From IMG/VR virus record IMGVR_UViG_2872192773_000004: 55,937 bases of DNA; one strand, 5' to 3'. Made by a program: the position numbers. This document shows positions 9,401-15,400 of the stretch, one piece after another (positions within the stretch are counted from its first letter, which is position 1; the number at the start of each line of letters is the position of its first letter). Source of the DNA: a virus (taxonomy: Duplodnaviria > Heunggongvirae > Uroviricota > Caudoviricetes).

Positions 9401-12400
9401 AAACACAAGTGTTTGAAAGTTTGTGCTTTTTATTACAGGGTGTGGAGAAAAAAGGGGATTATTTGTTTGCGCTTCTTTTGCGAGCTTTGAGTAGTTCTTC
9501 AAAAAGTTTGTTGAAATTTTCAACTCGAGCACGCATCTCTGACAACAGGGCCTTTTGCTCTGACTCAGGCAGTGCGTCGAACAGTTGAAGTAACTCTTTT
9601 TGATCTTCTGTCAGAATGGCTGGCTGATTATCCGGGATCGGTTCGCCTGGTTGTTTATCTTCATCCCCAAAAAGAAGCCAAGTCGGTGAGCACTGAAGCG
9701 CTTGGCTCAGTGCGAATAATCTTTTCCCCGCCGGCTGTGTTTCATCTCTTTCCCATTGAGAAATTGTTACGTGAGCCACTTTGACCAGCTTACCTAATGC
9801 GGCCTGAGACAGTTTTAATTTTTTACGCCTATGTAAGAGGCGAGCACCGAAGGTTTCGTTTTTCATATTAGGGAATTCTAATTTTTCTTGACTTAGGTTT
9901 CTCTACGGCCTGGTTTCCTTAGGAAAATCTAAGGAGCTCGATATGTTGAAAATTGATGCTATAGCGTTTTTTGGCAGCAAAACAAAGCTTGCCAATGCCG
10001 CAGGAGTTAGGTTGGCAAGCATTGCTGCATGGGGGGAACTGGTTCCTGAAGGTCGCGCGATGCGCCTGCAAGAGGCATCTGGCGGGGAACTTCAGTACGA
10101 CCCCAAAGTTTATGACGAATATCGTAAGGCAAAACGACCTGGGAAGGTGATTCATGAAAATCAGGCATGAGCACATCGAATCAGTGCTGTTAGCCTTGGC
10201 AGCCGAAAAAGGGCAGGCGTGGGTCGCTAACGCAATTACTGAAGAATATCTGCGGCAGGGGGGCGGCGAATTGTCTCTGGTACCAGGCAAGGACTGGAAC
10301 AATCAGCAGAATATCTATCACCGTTGGTTGAAAGGTGAAACGAAAGCGCAAAGGGAAAAAATTCAGAAACTGATCCCTGCGGTTCTGGCAATTCTTCCGC
10401 GTGAGCTGCGTCACCGACTCTGTATCTTCGATACCCTGGAACGCCGTGCATTACTGGCGGCGCAGGAAGCGTTGAGTACGGCAATTGATGCGCATGATGA
10501 TGCTGTCCAGGCCGTTTACCGGAAAGCACATTTCAGCGGTGGTGGGTCGCCCGGCGATTCTGTCGTAGTGCATTGATTGAAATTAATCGTGCCGGATTGT
10601 TTTGTTCGGTATCAGTTAAATGTAACGCTGCGAGCGTTACAAGGTGAAAACAAATGGCTTCAAACTGGATAAAGCTCGAGGTTATTACGCCGGATAAGCC
10701 GGAAATATTCAGGCTTGCTGAGATTCTGAATATTGATCCAGATGCCGCATTAGGGAAGGTTATTCGCTTCTGGGCATGGGCGGATCAACAAATGATAGAC
10801 GGTAATGCAGATTGTAACGCTCGCGGCGTTACAAAAAGTGCAATAGATCGCATCACTTTTATGTCTGGTTTTGCTGATGCGTTAATTCAGGTTGGATGGC
10901 TGGTCGAAAATGACGGTGGGCTTTCTCTACCTAACTTTGAACGTCATAACGGAAAAAGCTCTAAAAAACGGGCGGTTACAAACGAGCGAGTAACAAAAAT
11001 ACGCGAACTGAAACGAAAAGGTAACGCTGCCAGCGTTACACAAACGGATCAAAAAGCGTTACCAGTGGAAGAGGAAGAGGAAGAGGAAGATCTAAATACT
11101 GATCTCCCCCTAAATCCCCCTCGCCAAAAACGAGCGTCTAAAAAATTCGAGCCGGAGGCTATTGAGCTGCCCGATTGGTTGCCGGAAACACTCTGGCATG
11201 AGTGGGTCCGGTTCAGACAGGCATTGCGAAAACCGATTCGAACGGAGCAGGGCGATACGGGAACTGGAAAAATTCCGTCAGCAGGGTTTTACACCTGAGC
11301 AGGTGATTCGACACAGCATCGCCAATGAATACCAGGGCCTGTTCGCGCCGAAAGGTGTTCGGCCTGAGACGTTGCTCCGACAGGTTAACACCGTCTCGTT
11401 GCCGGACAGTGCGATCCCGCCAGGCTTCAGGGGGTAACGGACCATGAAAAATATTGCGACAGGCGGCGTTCTGGAACGCATCCGCCGACTGACCCCGCAA
11501 CATGTAACCGCCCCATTCAGAACGGTAGCGGAGTGGCGCGAGTGGCAACTTGCTGAAGGCCAGAAACGTAGCGAGGAGATCAACCGCCTGAATCGCCAGT
11601 TGCGGGTGGAAAAAATTCTGAATCGCTCAGGCATCCAGCCGTTGCACCGTAAATGCTCGTTTGCGAATTACCAGGTGCAGAACGACGGCCAGCGATACGC
11701 GTTAAGCCAGGCGAAATCCATCGCCGATGAACTGATGACCGGGTGTACAAATTTTGCGTTCAGCGGAAAACCTGATACCGGGTAGAATCACTTAGCGGCA
11801 GCTATCGGGAATCGCCTGCTGAAAGACGGTCAGACAGTGATTGTGGTTACCGTGGCTGATGTTATGAGCGCCCTGCACGCCAGCTATGACGATGGGCAGT
11901 CAGGCGAAAAATTTTTGCGGGAGCTGTGCGAAGTGGATCTGCTGGTTCTTGATGAAATTGGCATTCAGCGCGAGACGAAAAACGAGCAGGTGGTGCTGCA
12001 CCAGATTGTTGATCGCCGGACAGCGTCGATGCGCAGCGTGGGGATGCTGACAAACCTGAACTATGAGGTGATGAAAACATTGCTCGGCGAGCGGGTGATG
12101 GATCGCATGGTCATGAACGGCGGGCGCTGGGTTAATTTTAACTGGGAGAGCTGGCGTCCGAATGTTAGCCATTCGAGGGTTGTTAAGTAGTTTCAGGAGG
12201 ATTTATGGCGAAACCTTTTACTCCCGAACAGCGGGAAGAACTGAAGACGCGAATTGTGGAACTCGTGCATCAGGACGGTCGGGTCACGATTCGGCAGTTG
12301 TCCGATGAAACAGGTATCAGTCGTGCGTCTGTCGGTCGCTTATGCATAGAACTGGTCGCAAGTGGTGATGTATATAATTCTGGCTACGGCTTATTCCCGT

Positions 12401-15400
12401 CTGAACAGGCTCGCAAGGACTGGCAAAGCGCCCGCAAAAAACTCTCGAGAGTAAAGGTGAGGAAACCGGTTGTTGTTGATCCGGACCTTATCTGGTCATT
12501 ACCTGACGGAGAAATACGCCGCTACGACAGGCGCCTGAATATAATCTGTCGCGAGTGCCGGAAGAGCGAAGCTATGCAGCGTGTACTGGCTTTCTATCAG
12601 GGTAATTTTCAGGAGGCGATACTGTGAATGAAATTAGCTATCAGGCTTCAATTACCGCTGGCATTCGCATCAAAGGAGAGGAGCATGGAAATAAAACCAG
12701 AAGATGAGTTAAGCAATATCGTTTTATTTCCGATAAAAGAGGATGACCCTCGTAATCAGGTTAATTTTCTTTATAAGCCATCGGAAAGACCATATTGCCA
12801 TCACGCCTCTGTACGGGTTGACGAAAAAGAGCGTCAGGTCCGCTGTAAAATCTGCGGTGCGGTTGTGGAGCCGTTTGACTGGATGCTCTCTGTGGCAAAA
12901 AGAGAAACCAGACTGGCAGATGATGTAAGGCTATTGCGCCAGGAGGAACAGGAAAGGCGGAGAAATATAGAAAAGCTGATACAGATTGAGCGTAACGCGA
13001 AAGCGCGGATACGCAGGGCGACAAAATCCAGAACTGAATAATTAAATTTAGCACTGTTAAAAATTTAATCCTTAACCGGAGGGATTTCTGCACCCTCAAA
13101 TCATCAGGAGACCGCCCGAAAGGGCGGGGAGCAGTCACACATCTGTTTCCGATAGCCCCGTTCTAATGCTACACTCTTTGATATTTTTATGACCTCAATA
13201 AACATATTTATGACAGTTGCTGATTTCAAACGGCCCAAATTGGAGCTCCCAAACGGGGCAAACAAACTACTACTGCACTCTTGCTGTGCTCCATGTTCCG
13301 GTGAGGTGATGGAGGCGCTTCAGGCCTCGGGAATCGACTACACCATCTTTTTCTACAACCCGAACATTCATCCTCAGAAAGAGTATTTAATTCGTAAGGA
13401 TGAGAATATTCGCTTTGCTGAACAACACGGCGTGCCGTTTATTGATGCTGATTACGACACAGACAACTGGTTTGAACGAGCCAAAGGAATGGAATGGGAG
13501 CCCGAACGAGGGATCCGTTGCACCATGTGTTTTGACATGCGTTTTGAGCGGACAGCGCTGTACGCCGCTGAAAATGGTTTCAGTGTGATCAGCAGTTCAC
13601 TGGGCATTTCACGCTGGAAAAATATGCAGCAGGTTAACGACTGTGGGCGGCGAGCCGTCGCGCATTATCCGGGCATGGTGTACTGGGATTATAACTGGCG
13701 CAAGCAGGGCGGCTCGTCCCGTATGATTGAAATCAGCAAGCGCGAAAAATTCTATCAGCAGGAATATTGTGGCTGTGTGTATTCTCTGCGCGATACCAAT
13801 CTACACCGCAAATCTCAGGGACGCCCTCTTATCAAAATTGGTCAACTCCACTACGGTAAAGAAGAGAAGGAGTGATTTTATGGGGCACCTTTCTGATTGA
13901 TTTCATATTGGCGAGGTAAGTAGAATGACTGCGGGTGCTTGAGGCTATCTGCTTCAGGCATGAACACCAAAAGGCAGATAGAGAAAAGCCCCAGTTAACA
14001 TTACGCGTCCGGCAAGACGCTTAACATTAATCTGAGGCCAATTTCATGCTTTGCACATGTAGGTTAGCCTCTTACATGCCGAAAGGCAAGGAGAAGCAGG
14101 CTATGAAGCAGCAAAAGGCGATGTTAATCGCCCTGATCGTCATCTGTTTAACCGTCATAGTGACGGCACTGGTAACGAGGAAAGACCTCTGTGAGGTACG
14201 AATCCGAACCGGCCAGACGGAGGTCGCTGTCTTCGTAGACTACGAATCCAGGAAGTAAGAGTGACCGGGTGGGGAGCTGATCCCATCCCCGCCCACCTCT
14301 GATGTGTCAGGCATCCTCAACGCACCCGCACTTAACCCGCCCATCGCTGTGATCTCTCAGCGTTTCGGCGGGTTTTTTGTTGTTTATTTCCGGTGAATTT
14401 GATTCGCGCACCTTCGCAGATAGAATCGACTCACTTAAGTAGCGCGCAGGGAGAAGAGGGATGGACCCCGAACAGGGGAGAGCTATTTATCTGGAAGGAT
14501 TCTGAAGATGAAAATCGAAGAATTGCGTGAAATTTTTAGTGAAAATGGCCTCTATGCTGTGCGCGTTGAGAATGGAGCGATTGTCAGCCATTGCCGCATT
14601 AGATGTTTGCAATCTCAACAAAGGAAGAGCGGTGCTGTGTTATTTTATTTTTGTAATGGACTTCTGACGGACGGTTTTATTTTGCGTGAGGACGAATTTG
14701 TCACATCATTACGGGTTTTGAAAAAGATTGGTTTTAAGGCTGGTTTTCTGCTTTTGCTGAAGAATAAACTCATCTACAATCTTGAGCAGGATTGAACTCC
14801 TGCTGTGTAACACCGTGCCACCGGAGAAAGCCGATGGCACATATACAACTGGTCAAACAAACCTCTTCCGGATTACTTCTCCCGGCGACGCCGGAGAGTT
14901 GCGATTTTCTGCATCAAATCAAAATAGGTGAGTGGATACACGCAGACTTTAAGCGTGTGCGTAACTACGCATTCCACAAGCGTTTTTTCAAACTCCTGCA
15001 ACTGGGTTTCGTTTACTGGACTCCGGTCGGTGGGGCGATCACGCCTCGCGAACGAAAACTGGTGTCCGGTTTCGTTGATTACCTGTGTGAATCAGTAGGC
15101 CGGGAACATACGCCAGCTCTGAGCGAAGCGGCAGAGCAATATCTGAATACAGTTGCGACACGCAGAACCCGTGATACGGCATTGCTAAAGTCGTTTGAGG
15201 CTTGAGGTGTACTGGCAATAGCGGACACTACCATTTGTTCTTTTTTTAAGCAGTCATCTGATGATATTTTTCCCTGAAGGCTGCCGGGGAGATATTCCCC
15301 AGACGAGAGTGACGACGCTGACGATTGTAGAAAATCTCAATGTATTCCCGTATTACTGAGATGGCTTCATCCCGGTTATTAAAACGATAGTGGCTCAGGC

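Follow-up and report, generated by a model that had tools for sequence, protein, structure and literature searches.

The virus record IMGVR_UViG_2872192773_000004 of IMG/VR (Caudoviricetes), whose 55,937 nucleotides are called the window hereafter, contains a prophage early region in which two inactivated replication genes are followed by three open reading frames (ORFs), a hok/sok toxin-antitoxin locus and a NinB-like gene cut by an insertion sequence (IS). The third of these ORFs encodes a protein of the QueH family, predicted to be an epoxyqueuosine reductase, and is the subject of this work. A first-pass annotation of the DNA had placed the three ORFs at 12205-12627 (140 amino acids, aa), 12628-13041 (137 aa) and 13189-13875 (228 aa), all on the plus strand, which we confirm. 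It had also read them as one accessory block, and on this point our analysis leads to a different description, in which queH is a cassette of its own with the following features.

13210-13875, plus strand: queH coding sequence, 221 aa (PF02677 match and start-codon evidence)
13139-13881, plus strand: QueH cassette of about 740 bp, the unit common to otherwise different prophage contexts (blastn breakpoints)
13167-13175, plus strand: extended -10-like element TGCTACACT, putative queH promoter (consensus match)

An intact queH in a decaying prophage is mainly a known and already annotated gene at an unusual location. The proposal that the third ORF belongs to the QueH (DUF208) family is borne out by a Pfam match and by cysteine motifs that fit both the invariant columns of the family and the structure of Thermotoga maritima QueH. 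PF02677 matches with 220.6 bits against a cut-off of 23.5 (E=1.9e-65), protein residues 27-201 covering positions 1-174 of the 175 in the profile. The solved T. maritima protein (7lc5_A) is matched with E=5.2e-22, residues 27-203 being aligned with residues 4-178 of the chain. T. maritima QueH is also the subject of PDB entries 7lc7 and 9deu. The QueH family (COG1636) was reportedly described in 2017 and its structure in 2021. It is large, with 4,756 clusters at 50% identity and E of at most 0.001. No model of NCBIfam release 20 matches this QueH at E of 0.01 or lower, though the Prokaryotic Genome Annotation Pipeline gives the name 'epoxyqueuosine reductase QueH'.

The cysteines of the third ORF are those of the CCAPCS motif (C32, C33 and C36) and the pairs C111/C114 and C194/C196. 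We aligned 39 sequences, namely the window protein, T. maritima QueH, 34 diverse representatives (down to 33% identity) and three Enterobacterales orthologs. Six cysteines are invariant in this alignment (C32, C33, C111, C114, C194 and C196), as are N59, E65, R69, E106, R110, K144, Q191, G195 and S199, and at P35 and C36 conservation is 90% or higher; none of these residues is missing from the window protein. The conserved motifs CCxP(C/D), CxxC and CxC, predicted to supply ligands to a [4Fe-4S] cluster and an extra iron, are thus all present. Two mutated forms of T. maritima QueH are in the PDB, and their substitutions C9S (9d86) and D13N (9dco) align with C32 and C36 of the window protein, respectively. 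At the third cysteine position of CCAPC, the window protein follows the family majority, and T. maritima is the exception with Asp13.

An AlphaFold2 model of the window QueH (mean predicted local distance difference test score, pLDDT, 73; predicted template modelling score, pTM, 0.73) retrieved only QueH structures as its top five PDB matches (7lc7, 7lc5, 9d86, 9dco and 9deu), with target-normalised template modelling (TM) scores of 0.78-0.80 and E=1e-9 to 4e-8. The next matches were generic adenine-nucleotide alpha-hydrolases (AANH) with E-values of 1e-4 or weaker. The window copy shares with T. maritima QueH the full-length domain, the invariant residues and the predicted fold. It differs by a C-terminal extension of approximately 25 residues that is common to proteobacterial copies and lies outside the aligned T. 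maritima segment. It is also carried by a lambdoid prophage as a cassette of approximately 740 bp, and not at a chromosomal housekeeping locus.

Translation of queH most likely starts at the second ATG of the ORF, at position 13210, which would yield a protein of 221 aa rather than the 228 aa counted from 13189. This is the start used in RefSeq and that of the chromosomal orthologs. In one E. coli copy (locus L013), moreover, the upstream ATG is missing and a TAA interrupts the frame between the equivalents of 13189 and 13210.

The limits of the cassette were deduced from the breakpoints of blastn homology. In five contexts the left edge falls at 13139 or 13162, and the right edge lies at 13879-13881 in Escherichia phage HannyBb, E. 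coli B and strain 200177; in two other loci (L012 and L014) homology runs on past this edge into hok. In phage vB_EcoS-813R8, three unrelated small ORFs fill the slot between the middle gene and hok. Because of these breakpoints and of the content of the 813R8 slot, we consider queH to be a cargo cassette of approximately 740 bp in a variable slot, and it has entered several different prophage backbones. We looked for a clean empty site in 813R8, but as its slot is occupied by other ORFs, the exact insertion junction or a target duplication cannot be defined from it.

The element TGCTACACT is also found 42-45 nt before the chromosomal queH start in Scandinavium, Kluyvera, Enterobacter and Symbiopectobacterium, where the flanks are unrelated. 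More generally, the pattern TGnTAnnnT occurs upstream of queH in 21 of 79 loci, compared with 4.7% of background windows. The conservation of this element suggests that a native promoter travelled along with the gene. A riboswitch or another structured RNA before queH was considered and discarded, as an Rfam E-value search of positions 12000-14900 returned only sok; the predicted fold of the queH leader does not stand out either (z = -2.0).

The closest proteins outside Escherichia are those of Scandinavium (92% identical), Kluyvera (91%) and Enterobacter (89-90%), and orthologs with 79-87% identity are found in Symbiopectobacterium, Erwinia, Pantoea, Serratia, Dickeya, Photorhabdus, Providencia and Proteus. 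In the contexts inspected, queH has chromosomal surroundings: purL-queH-glrK in Erwinia-like contigs, the vicinity of tmcA, purC and bamC in Providencia, genes for a short-chain dehydrogenase/reductase (SDR) and a SnoaL protein in Scandinavium, and chorismate mutase and pseudouridine synthase genes in Enterobacter. The Photorhabdus ortholog likewise lies among housekeeping genes. Of 80 species-representative loci, only that of E. albertii has prophage neighbours in common with the window. Because its relatives sit in ordinary chromosomal loci, and only E. albertii has the prophage neighbours, the prophage queH is a captured cellular gene. The clade extends further, with copies of Sphingomonas, Stenotrophomonas, Pseudomonas, Paracoccus and Acetobacter still 75-80% identical (loci L056-L094). 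For an enzyme of 220 aa, such identity across proteobacterial classes would point either to unusually high conservation or to wide horizontal transfer.

Among complete E. coli genomes, queH is present in 995 of 5,426 (approximately 18%), and 985 of these carriers have a copy with at least 80% gene coverage. The strains B (REL606, ATCC 11303), C and ATCC 8739 are among the carriers, and the RefSeq name among the matches listed is 'epoxyqueuosine reductase QueH' throughout. As for queG, it is found in all 5,426 genomes, and hence QueH is always a second enzyme in E. coli and never a replacement. The role of a stand-in for a missing QueG, a typical though non-defining trait of QueH, is therefore not observed in these carriers. 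A prophage-borne QueH had been flagged as unexpected since enterobacteria normally use QueG. The observation itself stands, with every E. coli copy examined lying in a prophage context beside a universal queG; the generalisation holds for E. coli and fails for the order, as chromosomal queH genes of 79-92% identity are common in Enterobacterales. In a collection of 50,697 phage records, a close copy was found in one bona fide phage, HannyBb, in which it is annotated as 'hypothetical protein'. Most tblastn matches in this collection came from short unannotated 'Bacteriophage sp.' faecal contigs and from 'Acinetobacter phage MD-2021a' records (329-379 kb), neither of which we counted as phage carriage.

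Pairwise dN/dS values (Nei-Gojobori) range from 0.02 to 0.08 among the E. coli prophage copies, with dS reaching 0.44. Judging from these ratios, the prophage queH is under strong purifying selection.

The genes upstream of the cassette, and those that follow it, are listed below.

10654-11298, plus strand: O-like replication initiator gene, inactivated (PHROG 2509 replication initiation protein, E=5.5e-81)
11444-12190, plus strand: dnaC/ydaV-like helicase-loader pseudogene, split into two ORFs (NCBIfam PRK12377)
12205-12627, plus strand: DUF977, 'LygF' or 'Ren-like' protein (Pfam DUF977, E=1.1e-33; PHROG 142)
12685-13041, plus strand: small middle gene, PHROG 1621, 118 aa (maximal ORF from 12628)
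13112-13127, plus strand: GC-rich hairpin CCGCCC-GAAA-GGGCGG at the end of the middle-gene module (sequence and predicted fold)
13933-14258, plus strand: hok/sok type I toxin-antitoxin locus (mok/hok ORF at 14046-14258)
15202-16402, minus strand: IS3-family insertion that cuts the NinB-like DUF1367 gene (14792-15205)

The possible winged helix noted in the 140-aa protein is supported by N-terminal matches to HTH_24 (E=7e-6) and HTH_IclR (E=6e-5). PHROG 142 names this family 'Ren-like exclusion protein', and phage records use 'LygF'. It is present in 24 phage records, only one of which, HannyBb, also has QueH. DUF977/LygF is a backbone gene of Rac/Qin-like prophages that is unlinked to QueH. 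The second ORF exists over 12628-13041 as described, but its real start is most likely at 12685, which would shorten the product from 137 to 118 aa: the ATG at this position sits behind a strong Shine-Dalgarno sequence, AAAGGAGAGGAGC, and the RefSeq gene model corresponds to the 118-aa form. The match to PHROG 1621, a family of unknown function (E=9.5e-56), is aligned from residue 20 of the 137-aa ORF. Its product has a possible zinc ribbon (CHH...CxxC), although the Pfam Zn_Ribbon_TF score of 21 bits does not reach the cut-off of 29. This mobile small gene is found in 19 phage records that include Stx2a phages, again with QueH only in HannyBb. The hairpin downstream of it has no U-tract, and hence is not a canonical terminator, and it lies outside the QueH cassette, whose homology begins at 13139.

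Two features of the proposed block did not hold. The genes are not tightly packed, with approximately 168 nt of non-coding DNA from the middle-gene stop (13041) to the position 13210 at which queH most likely starts (147 nt if counted to the upstream ATG at 13189). Moreover, the complete three-gene arrangement occurs in only 2 of the 5,426 complete E. coli genomes (at least 80% query coverage), and the partners are often found without QueH. In other prophages, the interval between DUF977 and QueH holds no gene, a methyltransferase remnant or a reverse-strand ORF, and DUF1627 may stand before DUF977.

The prophage around the cassette is decaying, as appears from comparison with the related prophage of E. 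coli FDAARGOS_944, which is 99.4% identical and whose replication genes are intact. Compared with the 789-nt gene found there, the O-like gene has a 6-bp insertion at 11064-11069 and is frameshifted by an 11-bp deletion at 11250. In the dnaC/ydaV-like gene, a single A-to-T change turned AAG into TAG at 11783-11785, and PRK12377 positions 1-113 and 133-248 accordingly fall in two different ORFs. The replication genes had been called defective, including a dnaC-like pseudogene, and these lesions agree with that call. Downstream, coverage of the DUF1367 profile ends at position 123 of 198 in the NinB-like gene, and homology to the intact relative stops at 15203. The hok locus reported immediately after queH is real on both of its components, the peptide matching HOK_GEF (PF01848, E=9.8e-23) and sok RNA matching Rfam RF01794 at 13933-14108 with 117 bits against a gathering score of 59.

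Our favoured explanation, to which we assign a probability of about 0.72, is that 13210-13875 is a functional, captured QueH cassette that performs the B12-independent conversion of epoxyqueuosine (oQ) to queuosine (Q) in the tRNA of the lysogen, and that its neighbours are unrelated to it. The product would be a cobalamin-independent iron/iron-sulphur epoxyqueuosine reductase, originating from an Enterobacteriaceae chromosome. It would now be encoded by a compact, probably self-transcribed cassette of Rac/Qin-like lambdoid prophages, in the slot between the replication/LygF genes and hok/sok. Expressed in the lysogen, QueH would most likely act on tRNA-Asp, -Asn, -His and -Tyr and convert their oQ34 to Q34. 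The host QueG needs cobalamin, for which E. coli has no de novo synthesis, and the prophage queH would accordingly free Q maturation from external B12. B12 independence would then be the selected benefit, a lysogenic-conversion or fitness trait as opposed to an aid to phage replication, and the DUF977 and PHROG 1621 genes would be unrelated passengers or backbone genes.

The biochemistry of the pathway is consistent with this proposal. QueA converts preQ1-tRNA to oQ-tRNA, and QueG or QueH then yields Q-tRNA (PMC5372724). Both tgt and queA are present in E. coli and Shigella, and hence the oQ-tRNA substrate (PMC5372724, PMC1950534). The final step in E. coli is described as cobamide-dependent by Frey 1988, as cited in PMC4646009, and QueH is iron-dependent (PMC9508795; PMC13443448). 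Given 79-92% identity to chromosomal QueH proteins and intact catalytic columns, the window QueH can be expected to catalyse the same reaction. The cobalamin- and [4Fe-4S]-dependent QueG (YjeS) is predicted to act on the same substrate, oQ34-tRNA, with the same product (PMC4646009), but its fold and cofactor set are unrelated to those of QueH, and in E. coli it is a core protein (5,426/5,426 genomes) whereas QueH is accessory (995/5,426). A similar pair is predicted in Staphylococcus aureus, where QueG and QueH are expected to be redundant with distinct cofactors, and differing cofactor availability has been proposed as the reason for their coexistence (PMC13443448). There, both genes are chromosomal, unlike in E. 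coli, in which the second enzyme is prophage-borne and strain-variable. The statement that the function is unknown was too cautious: the enzymatic activity can be predicted with good confidence, the biological benefit being the more tentative part.

Several observations weigh against this explanation. The TGCTACACT element has no -35 partner and was not reported by a standard two-hexamer scan; more broadly, the sites found by the standard promoter and terminator scan were no commoner than in shuffled sequence, none flanked queH on the plus strand, and no terminator was detected after the gene. No Shine-Dalgarno sequence was found before 13210, and the best one of the region precedes an internal ATG at 13309. 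PHROG 3217 (188 positions) models just the form that starts there, at residue 41 of the ORF and past the CCAPCS motif; were it the main product, CCAPCS would be missing from the enzyme. The structural model is of moderate confidence. The window QueH protein is identical to the FDAARGOS_944 copy although two replication genes of the window's prophage are dead and its nin region holds an IS, and we considered this as a sign of host-level selection. We rejected the argument as statistically uninformative, since only about 1.8 substitutions are expected in 666 nt at the flank rate (an estimate). Finally, we know of no phenotypic difference between oQ-tRNA and Q-tRNA, and our literature search found no paper on this gene or on prophage- or phage-borne QueH.

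With regard to the internal start, the 36 codons upstream of the internal ATG differ between the window and L013 by nine synonymous and no non-synonymous changes. We consider that the long form is translated, because the codons before 13309 are under purifying selection and are kept in distant orthologs. Phage gene callers appear to cut QueH systematically at the internal ATG with its Shine-Dalgarno sequence, and this shortening may account for phage QueH having gone unnoticed.

Among the rival explanations, the one that survives best, itself unlikely, is that the same activity on tRNA benefits the phage in lytic growth. The gene would be expressed with the early right operon after induction and secure Q-tRNA for the translation of phage genes. 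The location of queH would suit such a role: in the early rightward region, it follows the replication genes and precedes nin/Q, in the same orientation and with no terminator found between it and the upstream genes, and HannyBb is an isolated phage that has the gene. However, a promoter-like element conserved in position, and apparently native, moves with the cassette, and queH is intact in a replication-dead, IS-ridden prophage. Its distribution also argues against this rival, with one bona fide phage among the 50,697 records compared with 18% of E. coli chromosomes. Moreover, turnover of the tRNA pool would presumably leave little time for an effect within a lytic cycle.

It is very unlikely that queH is a non-functional hitchhiker, recently captured and kept only by linkage to the prophage. 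Redundancy beside a universal queG, the missing Shine-Dalgarno sequence and the decay of the window's prophage would all be compatible with this idea, but not the low dN/dS at dS values of up to 0.44, the retention of at least 80% of the gene in 985 of 995 carriers or the spread of the cassette over several prophage backbones.

A role in defence or anti-defence, which the first-pass annotation had entertained together with nucleic-acid modification, is similarly improbable. A Q-dependent change at the anticodon might, for instance, evade or trigger anticodon nucleases, perhaps together with the two upstream genes. The slot by hok/sok is a typical hotspot for morons, related loci carry a Doc-family toxin and YdaT, and the PHROG label of DUF977 evokes exclusion. 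Nevertheless, PADLOC gave no matches for QueH or the middle protein and only helix-turn-helix (HTH)-level noise for DUF977 (E=0.0017 and E=0.0067), no stretch of which passes on its own; the three genes co-occur in no more than two genomes, and in sequence QueH is an unmodified housekeeping enzyme.

Least probable of all is an action on DNA or another nucleic acid, such as a 7-deazaguanine-type modification of phage DNA against restriction: phages do put 7-deazaguanine derivatives in their DNA (PMC6884629) and T. maritima QueH binds nucleotide (7lc7, with bound GMP), but no DpdA/TGT, FolE, QueD, QueE, QueC or QueA homolog is annotated between the integrase and ipaH genes of the related intact prophage, which leaves it without the preQ0 pathway, QueA, QueG and QueH are absent from the deazaguanine-modifying viruses analysed by Hutinet et al. 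2019 (PMC6884629), and the identity to housekeeping QueH comes with catalytic columns that are all unchanged.

Returning to the captured QueH cassette acting on lysogen tRNA, it resembles phage morons, lysogenic-conversion genes and viral auxiliary metabolic genes in being a discrete element of cellular origin, in a variable slot, with a patchy distribution and a putative promoter. It differs from phage morons in that no terminator was detected and in that it encodes an enzyme of tRNA modification. As the enzyme family, its chemistry and the name given by RefSeq are already known, the novelty lies in the unusual carrier, with no new mechanism. In the main survey of 7-deazaguanine genes in viruses, neither QueA nor QueG nor QueH was reported (Hutinet et al. 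2019, PMC6884629). If the prophage enzyme is active, it would be a clear case of a temperate phage spreading a tRNA-modification enzyme, and the last step of queuosine synthesis would be B12-independent in approximately one in five E. coli strains and in hosts of the Shigella or enteroinvasive E. coli (EIEC) type. In B12-free media, common laboratory strains such as B/REL606, C and ATCC 8739 would then have Q in their tRNA where K-12 has oQ, a difference that, if real, bears on how tRNA-modification and translation experiments are read.

One may go a step further and suppose that the prophage QueH is a lysogenic-conversion factor: in cobalamin-poor niches it would decide whether host tRNA carries oQ or Q and thereby tune virulence or stress genes, an extension that we regard as unlikely. 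The niches in question may be intracellular or in the inflamed gut, and the route may be Q-dependent decoding. In Shigella, the Q pathway (tgt/vacC) has been tied to the expression or translation of VirF (PMC1950534, PMC5041530). Because of this link, and of the ipaH effector gene in this prophage, a relevance to virulence can be conceived along a speculative route. If the extension were true, a phage gene would make approximately 18% of E. coli strains, the laboratory strains B, C and ATCC 8739 among them, physiologically unlike K-12 in a tRNA modification.

Other features of the window concern the prophage as a whole. A gene at 10154-10576, upstream of the replication genes, encodes a YdaT-family 'toxin', a name taken from the annotation of its homolog, and neither Pfam nor PADLOC has a family that matches the 95-aa ORF at 14508-14795, after hok. 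A cluster of four prophage tRNA genes lies at 25025-25335, with the anticodons CAT, Arg-TCT, Thr-TGT and Gly-TCC; RefSeq names a homolog of the CAT-anticodon tRNA as tRNA-Ile, and none of the four is a queuosine-bearing tRNA. The window is rich in IS elements. One IS3-family element is present four times (939-2000, 15202-16402, 27915-28976 and 30287-31373), a second element occurs as three identical copies of 1250 bp (2410-3659, 5392-6641 and 17102-18351), and a further rve-type transposase ORF is found at 7749-8654. A second early/replication module, encoding an Ash-family protein and a DnaB-like helicase, follows the IS copy at 17102-18351 and spans 19161-23903; because of its presence, the window's prophage is a composite or a rearrangement with respect to the colinear FDAARGOS_944 prophage. 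The prophage region holds at its far end, on the minus strand (53115-54878), a gene for an IpaH-type effector of type III secretion, with NEL E3 ligase and LRR_TTSS domains. The related prophage of FDAARGOS_944 likewise has ipaHb. Together with the dense IS load, the IpaH gene suggests that the window derives from a Shigella or EIEC genome.

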